DNA from: Sphingomonas sp.
GTDB lineage: Bacteria; Pseudomonadota; Alphaproteobacteria; Sphingomonadales; Sphingomonadaceae
Direction of reading: 5' to 3'
DNA length: 64,000 nucleotides
Assembly (NCBI RefSeq): GCF_003248515.1
Contig: NZ_QFOB01000002.1
Location: 417,064-481,063, forward strand
Numbering within the stretch: position 1 is the stretch's first letter; each line of letters opens with the position of its first letter. Made by a program: the position numbers and the translations under genes. Below, in pieces: positions 15,022 through 54,624 of this stretch. A model generated the notes under the pieces. That model made no database searches. It saw nothing but the letters and a program-made list of their open reading frames with translations, and was not told where the DNA came from.

Positions 15022-15318
15022 CAGGCTGCCGATGCGGACATGGCCGATCGGGCGGGAGGCGCGGCGGCAAGGGGATCCGGCGGGCGATCATGATCGGGCC
15101 GGCCGGATCCCATGTCACTGCCTGGCAAATGCGGGGGGCGTGATGGAGCCCGCGGTTCCGGAGCATTTGCCCGCCTTTTCTCTCGCCCGCCATGATCGCC
15201 CGCGTCGACCGATGGAGCGGGGAAGGCCAGGAAATTATTCTATGAGAGAATATTTGTAAGGGGGTGCCCGGGCTGATAATCCTGTCGGACAAACAGGAAA
15301 GCTGGAGGGGGAGACGGG

Positions 15319-15780
15319 ATGCCAAAGGCGACGGGCGCGATCGTGGGTATCGTGCTGATCCTGCAGGCGTGGGAACCGGTTTCGGCGCGATCGCGGCAGG
15401 AGGCGGCCAATGCCGTGGCCGCTTCAGGCTTCATCGATATGGTGTTCAACCGGCATCGTGTGGAGGAAGCGTTCGATCGCTATGTTGGGGCCGACTATAT
15501 CCAGCACAATCCTCGTGTGGCGACAGGCCGTGCCAACGGCATCCAGGCGCTGGGGCGGCTCGTCGCCCGCTTCCCCCAGATGCGCGTGTCTGTCGCCCGG
15601 ATCTTGGCCGACGGCGATCTGGTGGCGATCCACACGCATCAGGTGAAGCAGCCCGGCGAGCGCGGCTCGGCGATCGCCGAATTCTTTCGCTTCGCCCGTG
15701 GCCGGATCGTCGAGCACTGGGACGTGATCGAGGAGGTTCCGGGTCCCGCTGAGGCGAAGAATGGCAACGGAATGTTCTAG
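15319..15780 (+). CDS. SnoaL-like/NTF2-fold protein with signal peptide
   Basis: YIQHNP, ADGDLVAIH, FFRFARGRIVEHWDVI; hydrophobic N-terminus. Confidence 0.8.
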   Translation: MPKATGAIVGIVLILQAWEPVSARSRQEAANAVAASGFIDMVFNRHRVEEAFDRYVGADYIQHNPRVATGRANGIQALGRLVARFPQMRVSVARILADGDLVAIHTHQVKQPGERGSAIAEFFRFARGRIVEHWDVIEEVPGPAEAKNGNGMF

Positions 15781-15807
15781 CGCGATACGCGTGATGTCCG
15801 GTGGGCC

Positions 15808-16755
15808 ATGGATCTGCTCAGCGAATTCCTGACCAAGTTCCGCATTGATGGCTCGTCGATCGGGAGCTTCCTGTTCAGCGATCCTTGGGGGCTGGAAATG
15901 GCTGGAGGAGCATTCCTCTATGTGGTCACGCAGGGCGATTGCCTGCTGCTCGTTCCGGGGAGCAGCCCGCAAAAGCTGGAGGTGGGCGATTCCGTACTCA
16001 GCCTCGGGGGCGCCAGGGTCGTCCTCGCCTCGCGCCCTGACGCGGAAATCCTTGGCATCAAGGATCTGTGGCGCAGGACGCGAAGCCCCAAGACACCGAA
16101 GGACGGTTATCATCGGCCGATCCGGCTTTGTTGGGGTGGGGGTGGCCGGGATTGCCGCCTGTTCACGCTCGTCGCGGCCGTGCCAGCCGACGCGACCGCG
16201 CAGGCCATCCTGCGCGCATTGCCTGATGTCATCGTGCAGAAGCGCACCGATACCGATCTGCTTTCCTGGATAAGCCGCATCGACGGTTTCGGAATGGCCG
16301 AGAGCATGGAGGAAAGGCCGGGTTTCATCGCGCTCGCCACCGCGCTGAGCCGTTTCATCCTGATGAGCCTCGTTCGTGCCTTCGTGCTGACGAGCAGCCT
16401 TTCCACGCTGGATCTGATCCGCTCGCCCGGGACGGAGGGCATTGCCCGTAGCCTGAAGGCTATCCGCATGCGACCGCTCGATTCCTGGTCCGTGAAGAGG
16501 CTCGCGCGCGAAGCCGGCATGTCCCGGACCTGCTTCTGTGATGCCTTTCGCCGTATCGTCGGCCATACGCCGATGACGTTCGTGCGGAATCAGAGGATGG
16601 AGACGGCGGCCGTACTCCTGGCAGAGGGCGGCCAATCCGTGGCGGAGATCGGTGTGCAGCTGGGCTATGCATCCGAAAAGGCGTTTCGTGGCGCGTTTGT
16701 CCGAAGCCGTGGCGTTTCCCCGAGCGCCTATCGCCGGGCCGTTCGCGCCGGCTGA
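15808..16755 (+). CDS. AraC-family transcriptional regulator with N-terminal cupin
   Basis: MDLLSEFL...PWGL N-terminus; C-terminal WSVKRLAREAGMSR...LGYASEKAFRGAF...GVSPSAYR. Confidence 0.85.
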   Translation: MDLLSEFLTKFRIDGSSIGSFLFSDPWGLEMAGGAFLYVVTQGDCLLLVPGSSPQKLEVGDSVLSLGGARVVLASRPDAEILGIKDLWRRTRSPKTPKDGYHRPIRLCWGGGGRDCRLFTLVAAVPADATAQAILRALPDVIVQKRTDTDLLSWISRIDGFGMAESMEERPGFIALATALSRFILMSLVRAFVLTSSLSTLDLIRSPGTEGIARSLKAIRMRPLDSWSVKRLAREAGMSRTCFCDAFRRIVGHTPMTFVRNQRMETAAVLLAEGGQSVAEIGVQLGYASEKAFRGAFVRSRGVSPSAYRRAVRAG

Positions 16756-16854
16756 TCCTTCCAGGTCAGTGCCGGACGCCGGAGCCGTTTATCCGGACGG
16801 CATGCCATCGCGGGCGGACGAACGAGGGAGCATCCTACCTTGCGGGAGGATGCC

Positions 16855-17916
16855 ATGACCTATCTGAGAAATGCCTGGTATGCCGCGCTGTGGAGCGAAA
16901 TGCTCGGCCAAGGCACGGTCGCGCGCCGCATGCTGGACGAGCCGATCCTTTTCTATCGCGATTCCGGAGGGAGGGCGGTGGCCCTCGCCAATCGCTGCCC
17001 GCATCGCTTCGCCCCGCTGGATAGGGGGATCATCATCGGTGATGAGGTGCAGTGCGGCTATCACGGCCTTCGTTTCGCACCGGACGGCCGCTGTCGTTAC
17101 AGCCCGCAGACGCCCGAGGCCCCTCCGGCGGCGCGCATCCGCAGCTATCCGATCGCGGAGCGGGATACGATCCTGTGGATCTGGATGGGCCATGCAGAGG
17201 ATGCCGATCCTGGCCTGATTCCGGCTTATCCCGTGCTGAACGACGATCGGGAGCATCGCACCGTGCGCGGTTATTATCGCTCGGCGGGTCATTATCAACT
17301 CGTGATCGACAATCTCATGGACCTAACCCACCCGGAGTTCGTCCATGCCGGTTCGCTCGGCAGCCCGGATCTGAATCGTGCTTGCTACGAGGTGGAGCGG
17401 GCGGGCCCGCGCAGCGTCCGATCGAACAGATGGTATACGCACGGCGCTTCTCCGCCCGCCTTCGAGCGCTTCTTTCCGACGGCGGGCCGCCAGGTCGAAC
17501 ATTGGGTCGACATGCTGTGGACCGCGCCGGCCAATCTCGCGCTGACGGTGGGCATCACGCTTTCGGACACGCCACGGAGCGAAGGGCGGGAATCCCTCTC
17601 GCTGCATCTCCTCAGTCCGGAGACGGCTACCCACACCCATTATCTCTTCTCGTCGACGCGTAGCCACTCGCTGGACTCCGTCGAGCAGGACCGGCGCTCG
17701 CTCGAAACGATCCGCCACGCCTTCGAGATGGAGGACAGTCCGATGCTGGCCGCGGTGCAGGCAAATATGGGAACGAGCGATCTCTGGTCGTTGCGACCTT
17801 TGATCCTGCCCGGCGATGCGGGAGCGGTCCGGGCGCGGCGTCTTCTCGACAAGCTGATCCGTGAGGAAGTGGCGCTGGATGCCGGCAAGATTCCCGTCGA
17901 TCAGGGCTCGATATAG
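16855..17916 (+). CDS. Rieske non-heme iron oxygenase alpha subunit (VanA/DdmC-like O- or N-dealkylase)
   Basis: YLRNAWYAA, Rieske CPHR...CGYHG, mononuclear iron motif DNLMDLTHPEFVH and distal ED; RBS GGAGGA. Confidence 0.9.
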   Translation: MTYLRNAWYAALWSEMLGQGTVARRMLDEPILFYRDSGGRAVALANRCPHRFAPLDRGIIIGDEVQCGYHGLRFAPDGRCRYSPQTPEAPPAARIRSYPIAERDTILWIWMGHAEDADPGLIPAYPVLNDDREHRTVRGYYRSAGHYQLVIDNLMDLTHPEFVHAGSLGSPDLNRACYEVERAGPRSVRSNRWYTHGASPPAFERFFPTAGRQVEHWVDMLWTAPANLALTVGITLSDTPRSEGRESLSLHLLSPETATHTHYLFSSTRSHSLDSVEQDRRSLETIRHAFEMEDSPMLAAVQANMGTSDLWSLRPLILPGDAGAVRARRLLDKLIREEVALDAGKIPVDQGSI

Positions 17917-18872
17917 GGGAGGAAGGCCGGGCGAGAGTCCCCCGGCCATCGATCGGGCAGGCGCCGGACGAGATCGGACACCAGCCGGGCGATCGTCCGG
18001 ATCGCGAGCGTCGGGGGGCGCTGGGTCGACCGCGCCAGCGCCAGGATGATTTCGAGGGCGGGCTCGACGATCTCTACCGCGCCGACGTTGCCCAGGGCCG
18101 CCGCCTCGCGCACCGCACCCCGAGTGGCGATCGTGCAGCCGAGGCCGGCGGCGACGAGCGTGCGTTGGGTCGCGAGCTGATCCACGTCCATCCCGAAATT
18201 GAGCTGCACACCCGCTTTTCGGGCCGCCTGATCCACCAGCATGCGAGGGGCATTGGGTGGTTTCGCCATCAGCAGGCGCCGTGATCCGATCGTCTCCAGT
18301 GTCACGCCTGCCGCGCTTGCCAGGGGATCGTCCGGGGGTGTGACGAAGCACATGGGCAGGCGCAAAAGTGCCTCGTCCTTGCTCTGGAGCATGCCGGGTT
18401 CGCGCAGCACCAAGGCCAGATCGATCCGCCCGGCCGCTACCTGTTCGCCAAGCTGGCCTCCGCTCGCCTCGGTCAGGTGCAGATCGATACCTGGATGATC
18501 CCGTGCCACCATCCGCGTGAGATCGGCTGCGATCGGGACGGACGGAAGCAGGCCGAGGCTGACATTCCCGACCGGCAGCCCGCCGCGCGATTTCAGATCC
18601 ACGAGAAGCTGGTCCGCTTCCGTCACGAGCGCGCGGACGCGATCACGGATCGCCTCCCCCGTCTCCGTCAGCTTCAGGCCCCGACCGGTGCGATAGAAAA
18701 GCGTGCACTGGCAGGCGATTTCCAGCGCGGCGATCTGTCTGCTGATCACGGGTTGTGGGCGGCTCAGCATTACCGCCGCACGCGACAGGCTGCCGACTTC
18801 GGCGATCAGCAGAAAGAGCTTCCATCGCTCAATATCCAGGGCAGCCCCGGTCCGGCGCGGATTGCTCGCCAT
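17901..18872 (-). CDS. LysR-family transcriptional regulator (paralogue of 38060-39031)
   Basis: HTH GSLSRAAVMLSRPQPVISRQIAALE...LFYRTGRGLKLT. Confidence 0.9.
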   Translation of the reverse strand: MASNPRRTGAALDIERWKLFLLIAEVGSLSRAAVMLSRPQPVISRQIAALEIACQCTLFYRTGRGLKLTETGEAIRDRVRALVTEADQLLVDLKSRGGLPVGNVSLGLLPSVPIAADLTRMVARDHPGIDLHLTEASGGQLGEQVAAGRIDLALVLREPGMLQSKDEALLRLPMCFVTPPDDPLASAAGVTLETIGSRRLLMAKPPNAPRMLVDQAARKAGVQLNFGMDVDQLATQRTLVAAGLGCTIATRGAVREAAALGNVGAVEIVEPALEIILALARSTQRPPTLAIRTIARLVSDLVRRLPDRWPGDSRPAFLPYIEP

Positions 18873-18881
18873 CGCGCCTGC

Positions 18882-20348
18882 TCAGCCCTCGCGTGCGCCT
18901 TCCCAGGCCAGGTATTTCAGCTCCAGATACTCATCGATTCCATAGATCGATCCTTCGCGGCCCAGGCCCGATTGCTTGATTCCGCCGAAGGGCGCGATCT
19001 CGTTGGAGATGAGACCAGTATTGATGCCGACCATTCCGGCTTCCAGCGCCGCCGCGACCCGCCAGATCCGCCTGTCGTCCGCCGAGAAGAGATAGGCGGC
19101 AAGGCCGAAATCCGTGTCGTTCGCCATGCGGATAGCGTCTGCCTCATTGGTAAAGCGGATCAGCGGGGCGACGGGTCCGAACGTCTCCTCGCGGGTGACG
19201 ATCATGTCGTGCGTCACGTCGGTGAGAACGGTGGGCTGGAAGAACAGCCCACCGCGATCGTGACGGCCGCCGCCACAGCGGACCCGTGCGCCCTTTGCCA
19301 CCGCATCCGCGATATGGGATTCCACCTTGGCGATCGCATCGCCGTCGATCAGCGGGCCTTGCTGCACGCCTTCCTCGAAGCCGCCGCCCACGCGCAATTT
19401 CCTGACGCGTTCGGCGAGCCTTTCAGCCACGGCTTCATAGATTCCATCCTGAACGTAGATCCGGTTCGCGCTGATGCAGGCCTGGCCGGTGTTGCGATAT
19501 TTGGTGGCGATCAGGCCATCCACTGCCGTGTCAACATCGGCATCATCGAATATCAGGAGCGGCGCGTTACCGCCCAGTTCCATGGACATCTTCTTGATGG
19601 TCGGCGCTGATTGCGCGATCAGGATGCGGCCCACTTCGGTCGATCCGGTAAAGGTGATCTTCCGCACGAGCGGATTGCTGGTCAGTTCCGCGCCGATCGT
19701 TCTTGCGTTGCCGGTGACCACGTTGAACACGCCGCCCGGAATGCCTGCGCGTTGGGCCAGTTCGGCCAGCGCAAAGGCGGTTAGCGGCGTTTGTTCGGCG
19801 GGCTTCACGACCATTGTGCAGCCGGCTGCCAAGGCGGGTGCCGCCTTGCGAGTGATCATCGCGGCGGGAAAATTCCAGGGTGTGATCGCCGCGCAGACGC
19901 CGACCGGTTCCTTCAGGGTGACAATCCGGCGCGACGGCTCCGGAGAGGCCATGATGTCGCCCTTCACGCGCTTGGCTTCCTCGGCGAACCATTCGATGAA
20001 GGACGCGGCATAAGCGATTTCTCCTTTCGCCTCCGCGAAGGGCTTGCCTTCCTCAAGTACGATCAAACGCGCCAGATCGTCGCTATGCTCGATCGTGAGA
20101 TCAAACCAGCGCCGCAGGAGAATCGAGCGCTGTTTGGGGGGCAAGGCGCGCCATCCGGGGCCGGCCCGATGGGCCGCCTCGATCGCGTCCACTGTCTGCG
20201 CGCGATCGAGTTGGGGAATATCGCCGAGTTTCTCGCCCGTTGCAGGATTGTGCAGCGGAAAGCCGCCATCGGCGCCTTCCCGGATCCACTGACCGCCCAC
20301 ATAGGCGGCCGATCGGAACAAGTCTGCGTCGCGCATTTCGTGGGGCAT
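18882..20348 (-). CDS. gabD: NAD(P)-dependent succinate-semialdehyde dehydrogenase
   Basis: AITPWNFPAAMITRK, FTGSTEVG, MELGGNAP, YRNTGQACI, EETFGP and PFGGIKQSGLGREGS. Confidence 0.85.
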   Translation of the reverse strand: MPHEMRDADLFRSAAYVGGQWIREGADGGFPLHNPATGEKLGDIPQLDRAQTVDAIEAAHRAGPGWRALPPKQRSILLRRWFDLTIEHSDDLARLIVLEEGKPFAEAKGEIAYAASFIEWFAEEAKRVKGDIMASPEPSRRIVTLKEPVGVCAAITPWNFPAAMITRKAAPALAAGCTMVVKPAEQTPLTAFALAELAQRAGIPGGVFNVVTGNARTIGAELTSNPLVRKITFTGSTEVGRILIAQSAPTIKKMSMELGGNAPLLIFDDADVDTAVDGLIATKYRNTGQACISANRIYVQDGIYEAVAERLAERVRKLRVGGGFEEGVQQGPLIDGDAIAKVESHIADAVAKGARVRCGGGRHDRGGLFFQPTVLTDVTHDMIVTREETFGPVAPLIRFTNEADAIRMANDTDFGLAAYLFSADDRRIWRVAAALEAGMVGINTGLISNEIAPFGGIKQSGLGREGSIYGIDEYLELKYLAWEGAREG

Positions 20349-20418
20349 TCCATCCTCGCCTGTTCTGCGCGCCCTTTCGGCGCAGTCGGGATCATGTGCC
20401 TCGCAGGCATAGCATTGT

Positions 20419-20454
20419 CCAGATTAATATGGATATTGAGTCATATTAATCTGG
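20419..20454. repeat. Perfect 13-bp AT-rich inverted repeat with a 10-bp spacer
   Basis: CCAGATTAATATG-GATATTGAGT-CATATTAATCTGG, between the GntR stop and the gabD start. Confidence 0.85.
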
Positions 20455-21108
20455 CTAGATGGCGCCGAAGACGCGCTGGCGGATGGATTCGATGTGAAGT
20501 CGCATCAGTTCTTCGGCCTGGCGTGGATCATGGTCGGCGATAGCCTCCACCCACGCGTCATGCTCGGCATCGATGTCGTCCGCGCCGGTCGAAAGCGTCT
20601 GGATCCGAAATTTCAGCTTCGGCGGCATGGCTTCGCGCACCATATCGTAGAGGGCGAGCAGCAATGTATTCCGAGCCGCCTGCGCCATCAGGCGATGAAG
20701 CCTGTGATCCAGCTTTATCCACTGATCCTGCTCGCGGGTCTCGCGCATCGTGGCGACGCACCGCCGCATCTCCTCGATATCGGCGGGGAGGGCGCGTGCG
20801 GCAGCGAGACTGGCCAGTTTCGGCTCGATCGCGAGACGCGCCTCGAAGGCTTCGAGCGGACTGATCCGGTCGGCGAGGCCGGTCGGCAAATCGGGGAGTG
20901 ACCGATTGCCGATGAACGTGCCTTTGCCGACATGTCGCCAGATCAGACCTTCGCCTTCGGCTGCTTTGAGCAATCGCCGGATTCGGTTGCGGGTGACGCC
21001 CAGCAATGCGGCCAGTTCTGGCTCGGTGGGCAGGCGATCCCCCTCGCTGCTGCCCTCGCGGGAAACGAACGAGCGGAATCGCGACAGGTCTGCGGCAAAA
21101 TCCTCCAT
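20455..21108 (-). CDS. GntR/FadR-family transcriptional regulator
   Basis: GDRLPTEPELAALLGVTR...RHVGKGTFI HTH and FCD domain (EARLAIEP, DHRLH, EH...H). The start may extend to 21174. Confidence 0.88.
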   Translation of the reverse strand: MEDFAADLSRFRSFVSREGSSEGDRLPTEPELAALLGVTRNRIRRLLKAAEGEGLIWRHVGKGTFIGNRSLPDLPTGLADRISPLEAFEARLAIEPKLASLAAARALPADIEEMRRCVATMRETREQDQWIKLDHRLHRLMAQAARNTLLLALYDMVREAMPPKLKFRIQTLSTGADDIDAEHDAWVEAIADHDPRQAEELMRLHIESIRQRVFGAI

Positions 21109-21211
21109 GTCGGAACGGTAATGCCAAACATCTCCATGGTCCACGACCCCATATAAATAACTTGCAATGCCCATATTGACATGCCCACCGACGGCCGGTT
21201 AGGCAGGAAAA

Positions 21212-21231
21212 AATTCGCGGAGAGGGTAATT
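21212..21231. promoter_or_regulatory. 20-bp region-wide operator candidate
   Basis: AATTCGCGGAGAGGGTAATT just upstream of the cyclodeaminase operon, downstream of TTGACA at 21176. Confidence 0.55.
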
Positions 21232-21238: not shown

Positions 21239-22246
21239 ATGGGGCAACCAGTGTTCGTATCGGCTCAGGCCGCCGTCCGCGCATTTGCGTGGCCGGATGC
21301 CATCGCGGCGATCCAGGCGGCTTATACCGTGCCGGCAGATCCGACCGCATTGCCGCCGCGCACGGTGGCCAGGGCGCCCGGCGTATGGTTGCGCTGCCTG
21401 CCCGCCATTCCTGCGAATGGTCGCTATTTCGGCGCGAAGCTGATGGGCATGGCACCATCGTCGACGACGCCCGGTGTTGATTATGTGATCGTGCTGTTCG
21501 ATCGCGAGACGAGCGGTATCGCGGCATTTGTCGATGCCAATCTCGTGACGGGTTATCGCACGGCATCCACCACGGCCGCTGCTCTCGACAGGCTCGTGCC
21601 GCGTGAGCCGGTGACCCTCGCTATATTGGGCAGCGGTCTCGAGGCGACGATGCATCTTCGCGCTTTCGCCTCAATCCGCGAGATCGGTGCCTGTACCGTC
21701 TTCAGCCCCACGCCGCACAAACGGGACGCCTTCGCGCAATCTTTGGGCGCGGAGTTGGGAATCGATATTCGCGCCGTCGCCACGCCTGCGGAAGGCGTGC
21801 GTGAGGCGGGTGTTGTGCTGGCGGCCGCGCGCTCGCGGGGGGAGCAGCCGATCCTGTTCGGGAATTGGCTGCGGCCAGACGCAACGATCCTTTCGATCGG
21901 ATCCACCGTGCCCGAGCAACGCGAGTTGGATGCCAGCGTCATCGCTGCGGCGGATCTGATCGTGTGCGACACGCTGGAGGAAGTGATCGAGGAAACCGGC
22001 GACATGCTGGCTGCGGCGGCATCGGGCGTGGATACTCATGGCCGCTGCTTCGGCATGGACCAGTTGATGGCGGGCGCGCTGGACGCGCGCATCGCGCAGG
22101 CGGGCATCCGCATGTTCAAATCGGTCGGGGCCGGTCTTCAGGATGTCGTGATCGCGGAGATGATCCTCACGCGCGCGCTGGAGGCTGGTCTGGCCACACC
22201 GCTGCCGATCCAATTCGATACGAAGCGGCCGCAGAAGAAAGGATAA
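21239..22246 (+). CDS. Ornithine cyclodeaminase/mu-crystallin-family protein (imine reductase or deaminase)
   Basis: VTGYRTA, LAILGSGLEA Rossmann motif, SIGS...RELD and MFKSVGAGLQD. Confidence 0.85.
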   Translation: MGQPVFVSAQAAVRAFAWPDAIAAIQAAYTVPADPTALPPRTVARAPGVWLRCLPAIPANGRYFGAKLMGMAPSSTTPGVDYVIVLFDRETSGIAAFVDANLVTGYRTASTTAAALDRLVPREPVTLAILGSGLEATMHLRAFASIREIGACTVFSPTPHKRDAFAQSLGAELGIDIRAVATPAEGVREAGVVLAAARSRGEQPILFGNWLRPDATILSIGSTVPEQRELDASVIAAADLIVCDTLEEVIEETGDMLAAAASGVDTHGRCFGMDQLMAGALDARIAQAGIRMFKSVGAGLQDVVIAEMILTRALEAGLATPLPIQFDTKRPQKKG

Positions 22247-22248
22247 AA

Positions 22249-23259
22249 ATGGCGCGATATACACGCGGGGAAGCTCGGGACTGGGCGCGCGAGGCTCTGA
22301 ATGGCGTCGCGAGCGTCACCATACCGACGATGACCGCCGATTTCAGACAACTCAACGAACGCGCCATACGCCATGATATCGATCTGGCGGTGGAGCATGG
22401 TTTCGTTGGTACGCTGGCCTGTTCGGAAGTTGCGATCACGGCACCTGAGTATCGCCGCTTCTGCGAGATCGCGGCGGACCAGGCGGCGAACCGGCTATTC
22501 ATTGTCCATCACGCTGTTTTCAATACACTGGAAGATAATATCGAGGCGGCGAAGGCGGCCTATGACGCCGGCGCGGAACTGATGCTGCTCGGTTATCCTC
22601 CCTACTTTTTTCCGCAATCGCTGGATGAAGTCCACGCCTATACCAGGGCCCTGTGTGACGCGACGGACATGGCGGTCATGCTTTTCCCGATCCCGACATG
22701 GGGTTTCTCGCGCCTCCATCCGTCGGATCTGCCCGTTCCGCTGCTGCGGCGCCTGATCGACGAATGCCCCAACGTGGTCGCGATCAAGGCGGAAGGAGGC
22801 GCGCCGCACATCATGGCCGCGCTGGAGGTGCATCGCGCCTTCCACAAGGATGTCGTGATCAGTTCCCCGATCGAACATGAATATGTCGCGCTTTCGCAAT
22901 TCATGCCGATCCCGTTCTGCGGAACCAATTTCTCGGCCTATTATGGCCCCTGGCTGCCACGCATCCATGCCATGGTGCAGGCAGGCGATCACGCGGCCGC
23001 CACCGAAACCTTCTATCGGCTGGATCCGGCCCGAAAGGCCTTTTACGGCGTCGCCAATTCAGGTGCCGGGCTGATCAACCGGATGATGTGGAAATATCAG
23101 TCCTGGTTGCAGGGCTATAATGGCGGCCCGCTCCGGCACCCGACCGGCCGTGTCTATCAGCGTGACATGACGCTGCTCCGCAAGGGGCAGGAAAATGCGG
23201 GCCTCGCGCCGACCTGCGATGCGGACGTCGCCTTCTTCCATGGGCGTCACCCGCAATGA
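22249..23259 (+). CDS. DHDPS/NAL-family Schiff-base aldolase or hydratase-aldolase
   Basis: (beta/alpha)8 DHDPS-like pattern: LLGYPPYF and CPNVVAIKAEGG (Schiff-base Lys). The canonical GTTGE motif is replaced by ACSE. Confidence 0.75.
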   Translation: MARYTRGEARDWAREALNGVASVTIPTMTADFRQLNERAIRHDIDLAVEHGFVGTLACSEVAITAPEYRRFCEIAADQAANRLFIVHHAVFNTLEDNIEAAKAAYDAGAELMLLGYPPYFFPQSLDEVHAYTRALCDATDMAVMLFPIPTWGFSRLHPSDLPVPLLRRLIDECPNVVAIKAEGGAPHIMAALEVHRAFHKDVVISSPIEHEYVALSQFMPIPFCGTNFSAYYGPWLPRIHAMVQAGDHAAATETFYRLDPARKAFYGVANSGAGLINRMMWKYQSWLQGYNGGPLRHPTGRVYQRDMTLLRKGQENAGLAPTCDADVAFFHGRHPQ

Positions 23260-23290
23260 CCCGCTCCCGCGACGGGAAAGGCTGTCGGGG

Positions 23291-23887
23291 ATGACGACGC
23301 GACGCGATTTTCTGCAGGCTTCGGCGATCATCGGTGCGGCGGGCATGGGCGGCGGCGCGCGCGCATCGTTTGGCATTATCGGCGCGCCGGAGCCCCGTCT
23401 CCTGATCGCCGACCGGCGTTATCCGGCGAGCCGCGCCTTCGGTGGTGCGGCCGCCGCCGGAGGCCGAACTGTCGTGATGACGGGGGGTGACGTGAGCGGC
23501 CTGTGGACCGGGCGGCTTCGTGCGCTCTGGCAAGATGGCGAGGCCGAGATTGCCGGCATGACCGGGTACGACGTTCTTTTCTGCCTCGAGCGTTTCGCCT
23601 GGGATCATCGCCATTGCGTGATCGCGCTGGTCGATCATGTTCCCGATGCCGCGGGCGGCTATCAGCATGTTGCGAGGACAAGCAGTTGCGAGCGCCTGGC
23701 CGAGGCGCTCGCGGCCGCACGTGCCGATTTTCCGGGCTTTCAGGCCCAGGCGCTCGGGGTTTTCGATCCCGAGCCTTCGCGCTGCCCGCCCAGCCACGCG
23801 CCGGGAAAAGGGATGGGGGGCGAACCGCTTGCCAGCTGGATCATTGCCCCCCGATCGCGCATCCGCCTGACCGGAGCATCGGCATGA
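23291..23887 (+). CDS. Hypothetical protein with twin-arginine signal, PchX-like position in front of a VAO-family flavoprotein
   Basis: MTTRRDFLQASAIIGAAG; the stop overlaps the next ATG (ATGA). Confidence 0.65.
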   Translation: MTTRRDFLQASAIIGAAGMGGGARASFGIIGAPEPRLLIADRRYPASRAFGGAAAAGGRTVVMTGGDVSGLWTGRLRALWQDGEAEIAGMTGYDVLFCLERFAWDHRHCVIALVDHVPDAAGGYQHVARTSSCERLAEALAAARADFPGFQAQALGVFDPEPSRCPPSHAPGKGMGGEPLASWIIAPRSRIRLTGASA

Positions 23888-25886: not shown

Positions 25887-25934
25887 GACGGGTCCGGAAG
25901 CGGCGCGACCGAACGATGGGAGTGGAGGGCAAGG

Positions 25935-36917: not shown

Positions 36918-36928
36918 GCCTGCAAGGA

Positions 36929-43472: not shown

Positions 43473-43498
43473 AGCGGCACGGGAAGGGAGGCATCGAT

Positions 43499-44272: not shown

Positions 44273-44274
44273 TC

Positions 44275-45144: not shown

Positions 45145-45164
45145 AGACAGAGGGGAGACCGACC

Positions 45165-45725: not shown

Positions 45726-45745
45726 TCCCCAAAGGAATTCTACCG

Positions 45746-46585
45746 ATGTCCTTCCCGCGCGAGCCCGGAAAATATTATCGGATGCCCGTTTTCTTCGGGC
45801 CGAACCCCTGTCCGCGCTGGACGCCCGAAGGCGTGCCGCAGGATTTCGCGCGGGAGCCGGTGCGCAGCACGCTCGGCACCCGCTACCTGAGCGACAAGGC
45901 GGCGATCGAGGCCGTCCTGCCCGAGGGCTTCTCCATATGGGGCGATCCGGTCGTGACGGTCGAGGCGATCTACATGACGGGTTTCTCCTGGCTCGCCGGC
46001 GGCGGCTACAACATGTTCGACGTCAAGATTCCCGCAATCTATGCATCGAAAACGGAGGGTGACGTGCCCGGCACATTGCTGATGGCGCGCTGGGAAAGCC
46101 TGTCCGATCCGATCACCACCGGCCGTGAGGAACTGGGACACAACAAGCTCTTCTGCGACATTCCCGAGATCAGCGATTTCAACGGCCGCCGGCATGCCAG
46201 CATGAGCTGGCGCGGCTTCCCGTTCGCCAAGCTCTGGGCCGAGGATCTCATCGAAACGCCGGCGCCCAAGGGCAATCCTGACAATCGAGGCCTGCTCTCC
46301 TGGAAATATATTCCGGCGACGCCGCGCCCCGGCAAGAAATGGGGCGAGGAGGCGGACGCCAACTATGCCACGCTGACGCCGCCCGCCTGGAGCGGGGTGA
46401 AGACGACCCGTTACCTTTCGGGCAGGGGCGGCGTCGAATGGGCGCGGCCGACCTTCGAACAATTGCCGACCCAACATACGATCGTGAACGGCTTCGCCTC
46501 CTTCCCGATCCTGGAATCGCGCGGCGCCTATCTGTTCGACATGGTCGGCGGGGCATCGGGCGACGACACCTATCGCCTCGATTGA
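45746..46585 (+). CDS. Acetoacetate decarboxylase-like superfamily protein
   Basis: YRMPVFFGP, WLAGGGY and WESLSDPITTGREELGHNKLF; RBS AAGGA. Confidence 0.75.
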   Translation: MSFPREPGKYYRMPVFFGPNPCPRWTPEGVPQDFAREPVRSTLGTRYLSDKAAIEAVLPEGFSIWGDPVVTVEAIYMTGFSWLAGGGYNMFDVKIPAIYASKTEGDVPGTLLMARWESLSDPITTGREELGHNKLFCDIPEISDFNGRRHASMSWRGFPFAKLWAEDLIETPAPKGNPDNRGLLSWKYIPATPRPGKKWGEEADANYATLTPPAWSGVKTTRYLSGRGGVEWARPTFEQLPTQHTIVNGFASFPILESRGAYLFDMVGGASGDDTYRLD

Positions 46586-46595
46586 GGGCAAGGCG

Positions 46596-47669
46596 ATGGC
46601 GGAAGGCGTGATTGGCCCCGGCGATGTTCCCACATCGCCGCCGTCACCCCGGATCGTCGGCGGCGACGGCAAGCCCCTGCTGACGATCGACATTCACGCC
46701 CATGCGATGTTTCCGGAGGTGGAAAAGCGCACGGCCGCACGGCCCGAGCGGGCAGGCGAGGCGGACTTCCGCCTGCGCACGATGGGGCAGGACACGGTCG
46801 ACTATAATCGCGAGGTGATGATCCCTGCGGCATTTCCGGCAATGACACAGCTGGCCCGGCGTCTCGTGGACATGGACGTGATGGGTGTGGACATCCAGCT
46901 CGTCAGCCCGTCACCGAACCAATATCATTACTGGGCGCCCGTCGATCTCGCCGCTGAGCTTGTCTCGATCCAGAATGAAGGTCTTGCGGAGTTGTGCGCG
47001 GGTGCACCCGATCGCCTCCGTGGCCTCGGTATGGTCGCATTGCAGCATCCGGCGCTGGCGGTGGACCAATTGCGTCATGCGGTGAAGGCGCTCGGTTTCC
47101 GGGGCGTCGAGATCAGTTCGGTGATCGCCGGCAAGGATCTGTCCGACCGGGCCTTCGATCCCTTCTGGACGGCTGCCGAGGAGTTGGGCGCCATCATCTT
47201 CATTCATCCGATGGGCTGTTCGCTCGATGAGAGGTTGGCACCTGCCTATCTTTCCAATCATGTCGGCCAGCCGGTGGAACATGCGGTGGCGCTGTCGCAC
47301 CTGATCTTCGGCGGCGTGCTGGATCGCCATCCGGGGCTGAAGATCGTAGCGGCGCATGGCGGCGGCTATCTGCCCGCGCATCTCGGGCGGGCGGATCATG
47401 CCTGGGCGCAGCGGCGCGACGCGCGCACCTGCTGCCACAAGCCCAGTTCCTATCTCTCCCGGCTCCATTTCGACAGCCTCGTGTTCGAGGCGAAGGATCT
47501 GGCGCTGCTGATTGAGCGCGTCGGGATCGGCAATGTGGTGATCGGCACGGATTATCCGTTCGACATGGGCCATTACGATATTCACGGCTTGGTTTCGGCG
47601 CTTCCCGGCCTGGACGAGTCCGACCGCGCGGCGCTGCTCGGCGGCAATCTTCTGAAATTGATGGGATGA
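46596..47669 (+). CDS. Amidohydrolase-family protein (ACMSD-like decarboxylase/hydratase)
   Basis: IDIHAH, IFIHPMG, AAHGGG and IGTDYPFDMG. Confidence 0.85.
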   Translation: MAEGVIGPGDVPTSPPSPRIVGGDGKPLLTIDIHAHAMFPEVEKRTAARPERAGEADFRLRTMGQDTVDYNREVMIPAAFPAMTQLARRLVDMDVMGVDIQLVSPSPNQYHYWAPVDLAAELVSIQNEGLAELCAGAPDRLRGLGMVALQHPALAVDQLRHAVKALGFRGVEISSVIAGKDLSDRAFDPFWTAAEELGAIIFIHPMGCSLDERLAPAYLSNHVGQPVEHAVALSHLIFGGVLDRHPGLKIVAAHGGGYLPAHLGRADHAWAQRRDARTCCHKPSSYLSRLHFDSLVFEAKDLALLIERVGIGNVVIGTDYPFDMGHYDIHGLVSALPGLDESDRAALLGGNLLKLMG

Positions 47670-47695
47670 AGCCCCGCGTCGAGGGAGAGGGCATC

Positions 47696-48301
47696 ATGAT
47701 TCAGGCGGATATCGGACGGCGGACATTGCTCGCTGCGGTCGCGGGCGTCGCGGGCGCAGTCTATGCCGGTGTGGCACGGGGTGCCCCTCCGGTCGGTGCG
47801 CGGACCAGCCCGCGTCAGGCATGGGCGCATCTCGACGGCAAGATCGCCCTGCGGGGAAATCGTCCGCCCGTCGCGGACGCGATCGACATGCTGATGATTC
47901 AGGAGGCCTTTGGCCGTTACGGCATCGCCTATGACGAGGGGCGCGACGCGGTGCTCGCCGGGCTTTTCACCGAGGATGTTGTGGTCGACGTCGCCGAGGG
48001 ATCGGCCAAGCCCTTCCAGTCGGTGAAGGGGCATGCGGCGGTCATGCACAATTTCACCAGCGCCTTCTCCCAGCAGCGCGACCAGCGCCGTCACTGCTTC
48101 AGCAATGTGCTGGTCGAGGAGGTAACGGGCGATGTTGCGACGGCGCTCGCTTACGCGATCGTCACCGTCGCCGCCGATGGCCTCACGCTCGGCGCGACCG
48201 TCATCTACACGACGCGCCTGCGCAAGCAGGATGGTCTCTGGCGCTTCGCCTACATGTTCATCGGCATGGACGCCTATACGACGCCCAAGCCGAAGGTCTG
48301 A
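47696..48301 (+). CDS. SnoaL-like/NTF2-fold protein with Tat-like leader
   Basis: IGRRTLLAAVAG, RYGIAYDE...LFTED, RHCFSNV and LRKQDGLWRF. Confidence 0.72.
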   Translation: MIQADIGRRTLLAAVAGVAGAVYAGVARGAPPVGARTSPRQAWAHLDGKIALRGNRPPVADAIDMLMIQEAFGRYGIAYDEGRDAVLAGLFTEDVVVDVAEGSAKPFQSVKGHAAVMHNFTSAFSQQRDQRRHCFSNVLVEEVTGDVATALAYAIVTVAADGLTLGATVIYTTRLRKQDGLWRFAYMFIGMDAYTTPKPKV

Positions 48302-48305: not shown

Positions 48306-49634
48306 TCAGCGGGCGGCCGCCTTGGGGCTCGAGAAGACGAATTTCGGCAGGAAGGTCACGCAGATCAGTGCCGCCGTCATCGCGCCGCCGGTTAGATAGC
48401 GGCAAATGTCGTAGCTGCCCGAAAGATCGCGCAGATAGCCCAGCAGGATCACGCCCGTCCCGTTGCCCAGTGCGCTGGCGGCGAAGGTCAGGCCATAGAT
48501 GGCGCCAAACGCCTTCAGCCCGAAATAGCGCGAGACGAGATAGGCATTCTGGCTGATCTCCCCGCCGAGCCCGAGGCCCATCATTACCGCCGCAGGCAGT
48601 AGGATATGCTTGTCGTGCGCGCTGTAGAGTATCACAACACCGATCAGCGCGGAGGCGAAATAGGGCGTCAGTACGCGCGGCGTGTTCAGCCGATCGATCA
48701 CGAAGCCGGACGAGAACTGGCCGACGATCACGCCCGCGAAGGCGCAACTCATTACCGTCGTCGCGTCACTCACGCTCAGGCCACGCTCGGTCAGCAGCGG
48801 CACTGCGTGCGCCATCGTGGCGAGCAGCGCCATGGATCCGAACATGATCGCGGCGAAGAGCTGGTAGAAGGTGCGCTGGCGCAAGGCTTCCCCGCGCGTA
48901 TAGCCTTGCTGGCCGAAGCGGGCCCGCTGCTCGGTTTCGGCCTGCTCGCCGGAGCTTGCCGCGTGATCCGCGACGAGCATGGCCTTCGGCGTTCGCGCCA
49001 GCAGCGCCACTGCCGGGAAACCGATGGCGAGCACGATCAGGGCGATGCCAATAAAGCCTCCACGCCAGCCATATGTGTTGATCAGCGCCTGCGTCACCTT
49101 GGGCATGATCGTCTGGCCGAGGCCGGCGCCCAGCGCGACAGCGAGGCCCAGCACGAAACCGCGATGCCGATCGAACCATAGCGAGATCAGCTTCGCATAA
49201 GCGGGCGAGGCATGCATGGAGACAGGCACCGCGATCAGGATCTGCACCAGCAGGAATTCCCACGCATTGGTCACCTGGCTGAGCAGCAGATAGGCGATGC
49301 TGAACAGCACGATGCCGGGCAGCACCACCTTGCGCAGGCCGAACCGGTCGACCAGCCGTCCGCCGATCGGCACGCAGATGGCGTTGAGCCACAGCGCCAC
49401 GGCCAGCGCGGTCGAAAGCATCGTGCGATTGGTGTGCAGCGCTTCGGGCAGGATGCGCAGGAAATTGCTGTTGGTGGCCGCGACCATCACATTCGGCCCG
49501 GTGAGAAAGCCGAACCAGGCTCCCAGCGCAGCCAGAATTGCAGGTCGCGTGAATTCGCTGCGTGCCAAGATCCTCTCCCTTATGCCCGGGTTGTCCGGTT
49601 TTCCACATGCCTGGGCTGACTGCCTAGTGCGCAA
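48306..49634 (-). CDS. MFS transporter (MCT/OxlT-like)
   Basis: GRLVDRFGLRK, WFDRHRGFVLG, YGWRGG and SRYFGLKAFGAIYG; 12 TM pattern. Confidence 0.88.
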   Translation of the reverse strand: MRTRQSAQACGKPDNPGIRERILARSEFTRPAILAALGAWFGFLTGPNVMVAATNSNFLRILPEALHTNRTMLSTALAVALWLNAICVPIGGRLVDRFGLRKVVLPGIVLFSIAYLLLSQVTNAWEFLLVQILIAVPVSMHASPAYAKLISLWFDRHRGFVLGLAVALGAGLGQTIMPKVTQALINTYGWRGGFIGIALIVLAIGFPAVALLARTPKAMLVADHAASSGEQAETEQRARFGQQGYTRGEALRQRTFYQLFAAIMFGSMALLATMAHAVPLLTERGLSVSDATTVMSCAFAGVIVGQFSSGFVIDRLNTPRVLTPYFASALIGVVILYSAHDKHILLPAAVMMGLGLGGEISQNAYLVSRYFGLKAFGAIYGLTFAASALGNGTGVILLGYLRDLSGSYDICRYLTGGAMTAALICVTFLPKFVFSSPKAAAR

Positions 49635-49649: not shown

Positions 49650-49669
49650 AATTAGCGCATGTGATAATT
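49650..49669. promoter_or_regulatory. 20-bp region-wide operator candidate (most symmetric-core copy)
   Basis: AATTAGCGCATGTGATAATT in the MFS / VOC divergent region. Confidence 0.65.
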
Positions 49670-49763: not shown

Positions 49764-50792
49764 ATGGCGATACTCGGTATCGAAAGCGTCGTTTATGGCG
49801 TCGATGACGTCGCGCTCTGCACGCGTTTCTGGGACGATTATGGTCTGGTCCGTGCGGACCGGTCGATCGACGAGCCGGTGTGGGAACTGCCTTCGGGATC
49901 TCGCATCATCGTTCGTGCCATCGACGATCCCGATTTGCCGCCGGCCCATTTCCAGGGCTCGGGCGTGCGGGAATGCTTCCTGGGCGTTGATACGGCCGAA
50001 AATCTGGAAAAGCTCGTCGCGCGGATCGCGGTGGATCGCGAGGTCTGGCGCGATGCGGATGGCACAGCGCATTTCATCGATCCGGACGGCAATCCGATGG
50101 GGCTGCGCATCTGGGCGAAGCGGCCCGTGATGTGTCGCCCCGATCCCGTCAACGCGCCGGATCATATCGTGCGGCTGAACCAGCATCGCAAATGGCGGAT
50201 GCGTGCCCGCCCGAAGACGATCAACCACATCGTTTATTTTTCCGACAATTATGTCGAGGCCTATGAATTCTATCGTGACCGGCTCGATTTCAGAATGACC
50301 GATCATTCCAAGGCGAACGGCATCTTCGCCCGTGCGAACGGAACCTATGAGCATCATACCTTATTCTGGCTGACCACCCAGCATCCGGGCACGCGCGGCA
50401 AGCGTGGCTATGCGCATATCGCCTTCGGCTGCGAGGACGTGGACGAGGTAATGGTCGGCGCCAATTACATGCAGGACAAGGGCTGGTCGAACGTCCGTCC
50501 GTTCGCCGCGGCGCTCAACCGGCATCGCATCTCGTCTGCCATGTATTATTATTTTCCGTGCCCGGCCGGCGGCGACGCCGAATATCACGCGGATTCCGAT
50601 TATCTCGATGACGCGTGGATCCCGCGCGTGTGGGAGATGGCGTTCGGCGCGACGATCTGGGGATCGTCTTCGTCCGGCTTCTTCGCGCACAAGCCCGCGA
50701 CTTACGATGTGCAACTCGATCCCGACGAGGCGAGCCTCGAGGCGTGCCGCCATCTGGGCAAGGACGGGAAAGACGTTCCCAGCATCTACTGA
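49764..50792 (+). CDS. Two-domain VOC-family extradiol-type ring-cleavage dioxygenase
   Basis: INHIVY, EHHTLF, AHIAF and [22 protein letters not shown] (His/His/Glu metal triad pattern). Confidence 0.8.
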
Positions 50793-50853
50793 CATTCGCG
50801 GTGGCGGATCTGATCGCCCTGCGGCGCGCCACCGATTCCAAGGAGTTCACGTC

Positions 50854-52182
50854 ATGGCAACCTATCTGAAGCGTGGTGCGACGGCCGAGGCTCGTGCCGA
50901 GGGGGATCGCAAGGTCCGCGATATCGTCGAAGCCACGCTGGCGGACATCGAAACGCGCGGCGACGCGGCTGTGCGCGATCTTTCGATCAAGTTCGATAAG
51001 TGGGATCGCGAGAGCTATGTGCTGACCGCGCAGGAAAAACAGGATTGTCTGGATCAGCTTTCCGGGCAGGATCTGAAGGATATCGAATTCGCGCAGGCGC
51101 AGGTGCGCAACTTCGCGCAGATCCAGCGCGACAGCATAAAGGATGTCGAGGTCGAGACGCTGCCCGGCATCGTCCTGGGCCACAAGAATCTGCCGCTCAA
51201 TGCGGCCGGCTGCTATGTGCCCGGCGGCAAATATCCCTTGCTGGCGTCCGCCCATATGTCCGTGATCACCGCCAAGGTGGCCGGCGTGCCGCGCGTGATC
51301 ACTTGCGCCCCGCCTTTCCAGGGCAAGCCGGCCCCCGCGATCGTGGCCGCGCAGGTCATGGCAGGGGCCGACGAAATCTATGCGCTCGGCGGTATCCAGG
51401 CTATTGGCGCGATGGCGCTCGGCACGGAGACGATCCGGCCAGTCGATATCCTCGTCGGCCCGGGCAACGCCTTCGTCGCGGAGGCCAAGCGCCAGCTCTA
51501 CGGCCGCGTGGGCATCGATCTGTTCGCCGGGCCGACGGAGACGCTCGTCATCGCCGACGAGATCGGCTGTGACGGCGAACTTGCCGCCACGGACCTGCTG
51601 GGCCAGGCCGAGCATGGGCCGGACAGCCCCGCCGTTCTGCTCACCAATTCGGAAAAGCTCGCGCGGGAGACGATGGCGGAGGTCGAGCGGCTCCTGCAGA
51701 TCCTGCCGACCGCCGATTATGCCCGCAAGGCATGGGAGACCTATGGCGAGGTGATCGTCGCCGACAGCTATGAGGAGATGGTCAGGATCGCCGACGACAT
51801 CGCTTCCGAACATGTTCAGGTGATGACCGCCGACCCCGATTATTTCCTGAAGAACATGACCAATTACGGCGCCCTGTTCCTCGGTGCGCGCACCAACGTC
51901 AGCTACGGGGACAAGGTGATCGGCACCAATCACACGCTGCCGACCAAGAAGGCGGCGCGCTATACGGGCGGCCTCTGGGTCGGAAAGTTCATCAAGACCT
52001 GCACCTATCAGAAGGTGCTGACCGATGAGGCGAGCGCGATGATCGGCGAATATTGCAGCCGCCTGTGCGCGCTGGAAGGTTTCGCCGGCCATGGCGAGCA
52101 GGCGAACATCCGCGTGCGGCGTTATGGCCATCGCGATGTTCCCTATGCCGGCCGCGCCGAGCCACTCATCACCGCGGAATGA
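50854..52182 (+). CDS. hpsN: Histidinol-dehydrogenase-family enzyme of the HpsN (sulfopropanediol 3-dehydrogenase) type
   Basis: [38 protein letters not shown] and [13 protein letters not shown]; followed by an SDR and not by his genes. Confidence 0.7.
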
Positions 52183-52949
52183 GGATGGAACTCCCCCGCA
52201 CGCCCAGCTTCCGCCTGGATGGCCGCCGCGCCCTGGTGACGGGGGCCGGGCGCGGGATCGGGCTCGCGCTGGCGGTCGCTCTGGCCGATGCCGGCGCGGC
52301 CGTGACGCTCGCCGCACGCACGGCCGCCGAGATCGAGGCTGGGGCCGGGGCGATCCGCCTTGCCGGAGGAGAGGCCGAGGCGGCGATGCTCGACGTTTCG
52401 GATTCGGCGGCGGTGTCCGCTTTCTTCGATGGCCGGCCAGCCTTCCACATTCTCGTCAACAATGCCGGCACCAACCGGCCCAAGCCGATGCAGGACGTGG
52501 GCGAGGCGGATTATGATGCCGTGCTCGATCTCAACGTGAAGGCGGCCTTCTTCGTCGCACAGGCTTGTGTGCGGCGGATGCTGGCGCAGGGCGTAGCCGG
52601 CAGTCTCATCCATATCGGCAGCCAGATGGGGCATGTCGGCGGCCCGAACCGCTCCCTTTACTGCGCTTCTAAATGGGCGATCGAGGGAATGAGCAAGGCG
52701 TTCGCGCTGGATCTCGCGCCGCACGGCATCCGATCCAACACGATCGCGCCGACCTTCATCGAAACGCCGATGACGCGACCCTTTTTCGAAGACCCGGCCT
52801 TCAAGGCGAGCGTGCTGGCCAAGATCAAACTGGGCCGACTCGGCACCGTCGAGGATCTCATGGGCGCGGCGCTGTTTCTCGCCACCGATGCTTCGGCGCT
52901 CGTCACTGGCACCAGCCTCGTCGTCGATGGCGGATGGACTGCCGATTGA
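52179..52949 (+). CDS. SDR-family oxidoreductase (HpsO-like by position)
   Basis: [35 protein letters not shown] and YCASK; ATGA overlap with the hpsN-like gene. Confidence 0.85.
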
Positions 52950-54142
52950 GCGGCGATCCCGCGTCGAAAGGGCTGATCCCCGTCCTAGCGCTCGTGGGCA
53001 GTTTCGGGCCGCTGGCGATGGACATGTATTTGTCCGCCTTGCCCGCGCTTCGCCACGATCTCCATACCGATGCGGCGGGCGCGGGATCCACGCTCTCCGT
53101 CTTCCTGCTCGGCATGGCGATCGGCCAGTTGCTCTATGGTCCGCTTAGCGATCGCTTCGGTCGCAAGACGATGCTGCTCACGGGCGCCACGCTCTACATG
53201 GTCGCCAGCCTGCTCTGCCTGCTGTCGCACGACCTGATCAGCTTCAACGCGCTGAGGCTGGTGCAGGCGATGGGGGCGGCGAGCGGGCTCACGCTCAGCC
53301 GCGCGATGGTGCGGGATCTGTTCGACGAGCGGCATCTGGCCGATCTTTTCTCCATCCTGTCGGTGGTCAGCCTTGCCGCGCCCCTGATCGCGCCAATATT
53401 CGGCACCGGCATTATCCTCATAGGGGGCTGGCGTCTCATCTTCGCGGTGCTCGCGGCGCTCGGACTTGTCTGTCTCACGGCGATTGCTCTCGTCCTGCCC
53501 GAATCCCTGCCGCCCGAAAGGCGTACTGGGCGGCTTCGCCTCGGCGCGACGCTGGCCGGTTTTGGTGGGCTGGTCATCCACCCGCGCTTCCTCACGGCCG
53601 CGCTCGCAACGGGATGCGTCTCTGGGATATTGTTCGCGAATGTCACGGGATCCGCGCTGCTCCTCATGGAGCGTTTCGGGTTCGGGCGGATGGGCTTCAC
53701 GATCATCTTCACCCTCGCGATGATCGGGATGATGGGGGGCGGGCAGGCCAACCGGCGGCTGCTCCTCCGCTACAGCGGGCGCGTGATCATGCGCACCGCA
53801 GGGACAATCGCCATCCTGGCCGGGCTGGCGATGATCGCGGCAACCGCGATCAATCCCTATCTGCTGTGCACGGTGCTGGTTGTGATGACGACATGTGTTG
53901 GCTTCATGCTGCCGAACGGCGCCGCCTCGGCCATGATGGCGACGGACCGGATCGGGATCGCTTCCTCGCTGCTGGGCGTCATCCAGTTCGGCAGCGGATC
54001 CTTGTCGAGCGCGCTGGTCACGTTCGCCGGCGCACGCACGGCGGAAGGAATGGCGCTGGTGATGTGCGGCTTCGCGATCGCCGCGCGTGGGCTATGGGCA
54101 ATGCGCGAAAGGCTGGATGATCGTCAGGCGATGGCCGTCTGA
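52946..54142 (+). CDS. Bcr/CflA-family MFS efflux transporter
   Basis: PLAMDMYLSALP, GQLLYGPLSDRFGRK, RAMVRDLF and LPESLPPERR; TTGA overlap with the SDR. Confidence 0.85.
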   Translation: MSGDPASKGLIPVLALVGSFGPLAMDMYLSALPALRHDLHTDAAGAGSTLSVFLLGMAIGQLLYGPLSDRFGRKTMLLTGATLYMVASLLCLLSHDLISFNALRLVQAMGAASGLTLSRAMVRDLFDERHLADLFSILSVVSLAAPLIAPIFGTGIILIGGWRLIFAVLAALGLVCLTAIALVLPESLPPERRTGRLRLGATLAGFGGLVIHPRFLTAALATGCVSGILFANVTGSALLLMERFGFGRMGFTIIFTLAMIGMMGGGQANRRLLLRYSGRVIMRTAGTIAILAGLAMIAATAINPYLLCTVLVVMTTCVGFMLPNGAASAMMATDRIGIASSLLGVIQFGSGSLSSALVTFAGARTAEGMALVMCGFAIAARGLWAMRERLDDRQAMAV

Positions 54143-54526
54143 TCATTTCGCCGGAGGGTGAGCCAGCAAGATCGCCACGATCGCATTCGCTTGCTCGGGC
54201 GTAACCTGGGTCTGCGGCGGCATGGTCGCCTCGCCCCATTTACCCACGCTGCCCTTGAGGATGCTCTGCTTCAGCCGGTCCACATCTCCGGGAGTGGGGG
54301 AGGGGAAGGCCGCTCGGATCGACATGATCGGCGGCCCCACGCGCATATAATCGACGGCGTGGCAGTTGGAGCATTGATGTGCGACCAGCGTGGTATCGAG
54401 CGTGAGATTCTTGTCCACGTCCGGGCGCGGCGCGCCTTCGGTGTCGGCGGCAGTCTCGCCCGGTGCTTTCTGGCAACCTGCGGCGAGGATGCTTCCCATC
54501 AGCGCGAGCGCGAGCGCGATCCTCAC
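54143..54526 (-). CDS. Lipoprotein cytochrome c (c551/c552-like)
   Basis: Lipobox LAAGC, CSNCH, VGPP and GSVGKWGEATMPPQ. Confidence 0.82.
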   Translation of the reverse strand: MRIALALALMGSILAAGCQKAPGETAADTEGAPRPDVDKNLTLDTTLVAHQCSNCHAVDYMRVGPPIMSIRAAFPSPTPGDVDRLKQSILKGSVGKWGEATMPPQTQVTPEQANAIVAILLAHPPAK

Positions 54527-54604
54527 CGGGCAATCTCTCCTTCCGTTCGGGCCGTGATGAGCCTTGGCCGCGAATTTACGGAGGCTCCGGCTTTTCGTCC
54601 ACGA

Positions 54605-54624
54605 AATTATTCGATACGCTAATT
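54605..54624. promoter_or_regulatory. 20-bp region-wide operator candidate
   Basis: AATTATTCGATACGCTAATT (reverse complement AATTAGCGTATCGAATAATT) in the cytochrome c / flavoprotein divergent region. Confidence 0.65.

Follow-up and report, generated by a model that had tools for sequence, protein, structure and literature searches.

The stretch of DNA analyzed, here called the window, comprises 64,000 nucleotides of Sphingomonas sp. (contig NZ_QFOB01000002.1, positions 417,064 to 481,063 of the forward strand), and the analysis concerned a 20-bp palindrome that recurs in its promoter regions and the TetR-family protein, encoded at 39681–40382, that probably reads it. Family scans identified an aromatic-catabolic island of 45 called genes (15319–61187), grouped in 13 predicted units behind seven promoter regions. 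The island encodes two TonB receptors and two MFS transporters, three flavoprotein-cytochrome c pairs, a Rieske oxygenase, a PRK06847 flavin monooxygenase, two aldehyde dehydrogenases (ALDH) and three SDRs. Also encoded are an FAH-family enzyme, four amidohydrolases (one of them ACMSD-like), a cupin, two ADC-like proteins, a HisD homologue and PcaIJF, together with five regulators (AraC, LysR1, GntR, LysR2 and TetR). Twin-arginine (TAT)-like leaders, judged by eye, are present on seven island proteins.

The leftmost predicted operator (15233–15252; matrix rank 7, see below) is not in a divergent region; it lies upstream of a plus-strand unit (15319–17916) for a SnoaL-like protein, an AraC regulator and a VanA/DdmC-like Rieske oxygenase, a likely accessory module, and the SnoaL orthologue at the related locus L072 is also preceded by a site. 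The genes for a GntR/FCD regulator, a GabD-like ALDH and LysR1 (17901–21174, minus strand) are separated by the predicted operator at 21212–21231 (matrix rank 8), which lies between gntR and an OCD-family gene, from a second likely accessory module (21239–29364, plus strand). The latter encodes OCD- and DHDPS-family proteins, a protein with a TAT-like leader, a PCMH-type flavoprotein with a cytochrome c, an ADC-like protein and TonB receptor 1. The flavoprotein (23884–25500) aligned over its full length with PDB 9h40 (E 3.5e-171) and its gene adjoins that for the cytochrome c; 9h40, labelled p-cresol methylhydroxylase, is presumably pinoresinol hydroxylase. The next predicted operator (30491–30510; orthologous site in L072) is placed between the gene for an alpha/beta hydrolase with a twin-arginine-like leader (29553–30428, minus strand) and a plus-strand unit (30697–39031) for a cytochrome c, FAD oxidase 1, TonB receptor 2, cytochrome b561, two amidohydrolases and LysR2.

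In the center of the island, the gene for a CMD-family protein (38980–39501, minus strand; PF02627, E 4e-5) is divergent from tetR (39681–40382, plus strand; helix motif VHPSLIRYYF), and a likely autoregulatory operator (39594–39613) is located 87 bp before the tetR start, as had been described for the tetR promoter; the arrangement in N. rosa is alike. The genes for the FAA-hydrolase (FAH) family enzyme and a DUF4286-like protein follow (40343–41843, minus strand). Beyond these, a decayed second operator with only its right half kept (41904–41923; complete in relatives) and a predicted operator at 41953–41972 precede the unit of the conserved core (42021–48301, plus strand), which encodes an ALDH, an SDR, a lactone-hydrolase-like amidohydrolase, a cupin, an ADC-like protein, the ACMSD-like amidohydrolase and a SnoaL protein. 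A conserved TTGACA, the predicted -35 box of the ALDH unit, had been placed directly before the 41953 copy; it is there (41948–41953), and its last base overlaps the first base of the site.

On the right, the strongest predicted operator (49650–49669; matrix rank 1) lies between the gene for an MFS transporter (48306–49487, minus strand) and a plus-strand unit (49764–54142) encoding a VOC-family extradiol-dioxygenase-like enzyme, the HisD-family protein, an SDR and a Bcr/CflA MFS transporter. The VOC enzyme (49764–50792) matched PF00903, and in a weak alignment with 2zi8 (E 1e-5) the His, His and Glu metal ligands of the two coincide, as expected of a type I extradiol dioxygenase. An eighth, weaker match, absent from the earlier list, is found upstream of the MFS gene (49536–49555; rank 46 on the matrix from other genomes), with one in a similar position in L024. 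The last predicted operator (54605–54624; orthologous sites in L073, L168 and L170) separates a cytochrome c gene (54143–54526, minus strand) from the genes for FAD oxidase 2, the PRK06847 flavin monooxygenase, an SDR, a VOC protein, PcaI, PcaJ and PcaF (54643–61187, plus strand).

All seven 20-mers of the preliminary description were located at its coordinates and on its strands, and all are intergenic. The consensus proposed there, AATT(A/C)GC-N9-AATT, captured a recurrent element in a form that had to be replaced: the element is a symmetric 20-bp palindrome, WATT(A/C)(G/T)C-N6-G(A/C)(G/T)AATW, matched exactly by three of the seven sites. For counting, the frame WATT-N12-AATW was used, a pattern picked after the sites had been seen. 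It occurs 48 times in the 4.57-Mb genome and eight times in the window, where 0.67 occurrences are expected (binomial P = 3.4e-7); other spacers (6–11 and 13–19) in the same frame gave 0–3 window matches each. With divergent regions defined by the gene calls of this analysis, the frame is present in 6/6 divergent regions at 15–62 kb and in 1 of the 563 divergent regions elsewhere. Neither of the two divergent regions before 15 kb has the element.

A matrix built from six window sites placed all seven within the genome-wide top 8, and on leave-one-out scoring five sites kept 1–8 genome matches at or above their own score. A second matrix, from 16 sites of other genomes, ranked the seven sites 1, 2, 5, 6, 7, 8 and 9 (39594 being sixth); this ranking is partly circular, the 16 sites having been chosen via the window's flanks, pattern or matrix. 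The 15233 copy, previously called weaker, is on this matrix no weaker than 21212 or 54605. The 20-base palindrome that marks seven promoter regions is real. As an RNA family the element was rejected (no Rfam match).

The element was then compared across relatives. Six of nine dioxygenase-bearing genome loci carry the motif in intergenic DNA, namely four Sphingobium/Novosphingobium loci (dioxygenases 78–80%), N. profundi and a Solimonas metagenome-assembled genome (MAG); of the other three, one was too short to include a promoter, and no clear pattern was seen at the SAR86 locus or at the 50% Sphingomonas locus. In alignments of five MFS-dioxygenase and seven FAH-ALDH orthologous regions the site stands as a conserved island amid divergent DNA, and TTGACA abuts it in 6/7 of the FAH-ALDH regions, a placement that fits a repressor. 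A recurrent cluster was also seen in several genera of the family (L123–L136, L070 and L194), with genes for a TonB receptor, dioxygenase, monooxygenase, FAH, TetR, metallo-hydrolase, fumarylacetoacetase and ACMSD-like enzyme, and often with tandem operators 22 bp apart ahead of the receptor.

TetR-family repressors bind as dimers to dyads over promoters, palindromes of about 15–25 bp, and are released by a ligand. The TetR of the island matched PF00440 slightly below the cut-off (E 9e-5, 22.6 bits; cut-off 24), and its C-terminal ligand/dimer domain matched PF14514 (62 bits; cut-off 25.3) and PF17938 (45 bits). All 12 of its PDB matches are regulators, mostly labelled TetR (best 2qtq, E 1e-20). 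Its helix residues are invariant in 32 homologues. Relatives at E ≤ 1e-12 were present in 76/400 family genomes, all except one at ≤35% identity, and tetR genes of 53–89% identity were found solely by targeted searches.

The preliminary description had given this TetR as the probable reader of the element, and the attribution gained comparative support from co-occurrence, from sites upstream of tetR relatives, from co-variation with TetR clades and from the failure to find orthologues of the other local regulators in a number of genomes with the motif. At TetR-linked loci the frame was present in 48/237 promoter regions (close 13/38, middle 7/33, distant 28/166), and at 19 loci with a paralogous dioxygenase cluster and no such TetR in 0/141, the AT content being equal. 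One locus (L029) was removed from the latter group after a 30% TetR had been seen at its edge; the count is 0 sites with or without it. In a blind count of dyads, ATT-N12-AAT ranked first at the close and the distant TetR-linked loci and second at the middle ones; at loci without the TetR it was outside the top 8. A strict site lies ≤130 bp upstream of 11/15 tetR genes of the DPALVRYYF type (14/15 with one mismatch) versus 1/7 of the NSALVKYYF type. Two loci with the motif, in Solimonas and N. rosa, had no visible tetR, and the prediction that relatives would be present in these genomes held (40%, on the same contig, and 53%); in the SAR86 genome no TetR relative was found.

Positions 5–7 of the half-site vary with the TetR clade: with the HPSLIRYYF clade they read AGC, ATC, CGC or CTC (64 half-sites from 8 sources), in the middle group for the most part CCC (30 half-sites from 5 sources) and with the DPA types CCT or CTT (64 half-sites from 9 sources), a co-variation that is descriptive, since kin share traits. 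Next to the DRSLIRYYF clade (L074–L087) the palindrome has a 21-bp form, the loci being largely redundant. Family-wide, the strict pattern occurred in 13/17 genomes of the DPAL type versus 37/383 others (hand tally, the 30 best TetR matches classed by helix); it was derived from those same genomes and the comparison was given little weight. About 20 of the background matches are one recurring, perfect-looking 20-mer, which was coding and non-promoter in the five cases fetched (L190–L193 and L197). On this comparative evidence the palindrome is probably the operator of TetR 39681–40382, which would repress the promoters concerned, including its own.

Several observations weigh against the assignment to TetR. 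The site in the tetR promoter (39594) was the weakest on leave-one-out scoring, with 342 genome matches, and among close-clade tetR genes a strict upstream site was present in 1/5 and a relaxed one in 3/5 (plus N. rosa). No 20-bp site was found at the one locus with the 30% TetR (L029/L179). The distant loci were selected once sites were already known in many of them, and related genomes are non-independent. Overlap with predicted sigma-70 cores was 60/77, a figure inflated by the AT-richness of the site itself. This overlap, and the resemblance of the half-sites to TAAT boxes, would be expected if the element were merely AT-rich promoter sequence, such as back-to-back -10 boxes, with no dedicated reader; the fixed spacing of 12, the rarity of the frame in other divergent regions (1/563) and its absence from TetR-less clusters of equal AT content (0/141) make that explanation very improbable.

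The remaining explanations give the element to another reader. LysR2, which is NAC-like, or its paralogue LysR1 could use it as an activator site: LysR2 orthologues travel with the close clade and have a site directly upstream in L021, L024, L072, L167 and L172, which also counts against TetR. LysR binding sites follow a T-N11-A dyad rule, unlike the even-length dyad ATT-N12-AAT. No LysR2 match at E ≤ 1e-20 was found in the motif-bearing genomes G441, G031, G007 and G215, and G436 has only a 29% paralogue; a search with LysR1 met only LysR2-like genes in three genomes, along with a single 31% paralogue, and had no match in G441 and G436. A LysR reader is improbable. Slightly lower odds attach to the local GntR or AraC, or to a regulator encoded elsewhere, despite the sites beside gntR (21212) and ahead of the araC unit (15233). 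GntR matches were ≤32% in five genomes, with orthologues in 2/300 family genomes, and the GntR-OCD-DHDPS-GabD cluster of G166 had no site; a candidate GntR box was not found there either. AraC matches were ≤36% in five motif-bearing genomes. Among matrix matches in the genome outside the window, the four annotated ones (type II secretion, TauD/TonB, SDR and OsmC/MarR genes) have no theme in common, and another, C7, has no called gene nearby. Because orthologues of GntR, AraC, LysR1 and LysR2 failed to turn up in several genomes that carry the motif, these four were rejected as readers.

How far a TetR operator unites the island is a separate question. One regulator, one inducer and a single catabolic system had been proposed; the shared operator stands, and the step to a single inducer and system reaches too far, given four other regulator genes and an accessory block. 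In its strong form, in which a single TetR and a single inducer are enough and the 45 genes make up one linear pathway for one substrate, the proposal is doubtful. It is favored by an operator at every divergent region of 15–62 kb and at the 15233 promoter, and by genomes G166 and G268, in which homologues of OCD, DHDPS and GabD adjoin those of HisD, the dioxygenase and the monooxygenase, an arrangement that links the left block functionally to the rest. Against it, the genes for AraC, GntR, LysR1 and LysR2 are all in operator-headed units. None of five close genomes that carry the regulon yielded OCD, and the matches there to the flavoprotein and the Rieske oxygenase were no more than 36–42% paralogues (some of these genomes are MAGs, so that absence is not established). 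Paralogue pairs in the island (LysR 59%, TonB receptor 44%, FAD oxidase 40%) suggest more than one entry substrate. A core recurs in relatives in shuffled order, with operators at the unit heads: TetR, FAH, ALDH, SDR, amidohydrolases, cupin, ADC-like protein, MFS, dioxygenase, monooxygenase, VOC, CMD-like protein and FAD oxidase. A better fit is one master repressor with this conserved core, accessory entry or exit modules and a second tier of regulation, and the 15–27 kb block was probably recruited to the regulon as an accessory module.

Under this arrangement of core and modules, a TetR dimer would bind the dyads over the promoter cores and block transcription of the 13 units (45 genes, 15319–61187), and an aromatic substrate or intermediate would bind TetR and lift repression, also at the promoter of tetR itself. 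The genes for AraC, GntR, LysR1 and LysR2, being within repressed units, would form the second tier. As judged from enzyme families, the pathway would start with TonB uptake, periplasmic oxidation and hydrolysis by the flavocytochromes and the hydrolases with TAT-like leaders, and MFS import. It would continue with ring hydroxylation by the flavin monooxygenase and extradiol cleavage, and would end with FAH, ALDH, SDR and decarboxylase steps (side-chain hydrolysis and decarboxylation), leaving through 3-oxoadipate by PcaIJF.

From the make-up of gene families alone, the likeliest substrate, though at somewhat less than even odds, is a hydroxylated polyphenol from plants, flavonoid or benzopyran in type; in view of the ACMSD-like, OCD and DHDPS-family genes it may also be an N-heterocycle. 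Searches of PDB, NCBIfam, the Atlas and annotated plasmids for the substrate returned enzyme families only and no specific substrate. One match, PDB 7qwt, is presumably guaiacol demethylase, the match carrying a generic name only. More speculatively, and rather unlikely in all its parts, a TetR subfamily of Sphingomonadaceae might sense a ring-cleavage intermediate of plant polyphenols, its operator code (inner bases, 20 versus 21 bp) co-evolving with the recognition helix. It might then act as master switch above the four regulators for a new flavonoid/flavan route in which periplasmic flavocytochromes take part, along with a HisD homologue of new chemistry.

RutR, PsrA, FadP and LiuQ of Proteobacteria, as presented in the available part of PMC5343134, are likewise TetR-family regulators with a palindrome at several catabolic or transport operons and at their own gene. 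Their regulons average 5–18 genes in the table of that source, whereas the island has about 45, with four other regulators under the operator. The likeness suggests, by analogy, that the working principle is that of other autoregulated TetR catabolic regulons and that this regulator, motif and cluster are a further member. TetR 39681–40382 is no orthologue of the named TetR regulators, its matches to the BetI model being weak and far below cut-off. Two other sphingomonad regulators of aromatic catabolism were considered: PheR of Sphingobium SHPJ-2, for uptake and catabolism, is of the IclR family with a different core site (PMC13273656, in part), and for LigR of N. aromaticivorans the portion of PMC12710314 available has no word of a TetR or of the pNL2 cluster homologous to the island. 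A literature search, with most subscription papers outside its coverage, turned up no paper that describes this TetR, its motif or the cluster.

Among flavonoid clusters, fde (Herbaspirillum, naringenin) and ifc (Variovorax, isoflavone) have in common with the island an FAD monooxygenase, a glyoxalase-type dioxygenase, a cupin, an MFS transporter, an alpha/beta hydrolase and an FAH-type enzyme, likened by family and not by sequence (PMC11069340, in part). The monooxygenase-glyoxalase-cupin-FAH set is that of the flavonoid A-ring route in the parts of PMC11069340 and PMC11303751 available. Control of fde is by a LysR activator, FdeR, and that of the island is predicted to be by TetR. Relative to fde and ifc the island also has the HisD homologue, TonB receptors, three flavocytochromes and enzymes that are ACMSD-like and ADC-like, and the gene calls at 15–61 kb include neither a cyclase nor a small 2Fe-2S gene. 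The protein at 23884–25500 is like the VAO/PCMH flavocytochromes in sequence and in its adjacent cytochrome c, and in the island it is accessory, outside the conserved core; a PinH clade is named in the part of PMC7617285 available. Genes of fde-like families (hydrolase, VOC, FAH and cyclase) were also seen on a Pseudomonas plasmid (L183, 6809–11415), beside a different TetR and with a promoter that lacks the motif.

The regulatory logic is textbook, and the value of the motif is in delimiting an orphan pathway and making its substrate testable: it bounds an aromatic-degradation island and names its probable switch, which gives a route to the substrate. The pair of regulator and motif marks related clusters in many Sphingomonadaceae and offers a handle on a family of orphan pathways (PRK06847 monooxygenase, HisD homologue and ACMSD-like enzyme). 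It may serve as a biosensor part, and as a natural series for the co-evolution of TetR and operator.

No site was found left of 15 kb (sugar genes) or right of 61 kb (IorAB-like genes). The left part of the window (1–15021) is a sugar-use region outside the regulon, with the end of a TonB receptor gene, a tryptophan-halogenase-family gene and genes for alpha-galactosidase, a ROK regulator, GluP, a kinase, GH2, zwf and pgi. On the right, IorB/IorA-like genes (61496–64000), after which a cyclase gene and a MarR gene come beyond the window (L188, 4224–5590), form a separate module without the motif. The HisD-family protein and the SDR next to it (50854–52949) are 85% and 80% identical to a pair on pNL2 of N. 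aromaticivorans (L093, 17684–19770), and 129 plasmid records match the HisD-family protein, which is probably not for histidine synthesis. The protein encoded at 23195–23887, immediately before the PCMH-type flavoprotein, has a TAT-like leader and no Pfam family, and is possibly an export or assembly helper. A perfect 13-bp inverted repeat with a 10-base gap (20419–20454), between the gntR stop and the gabD start, is a second, different element, either terminator-like or the site of another regulator.

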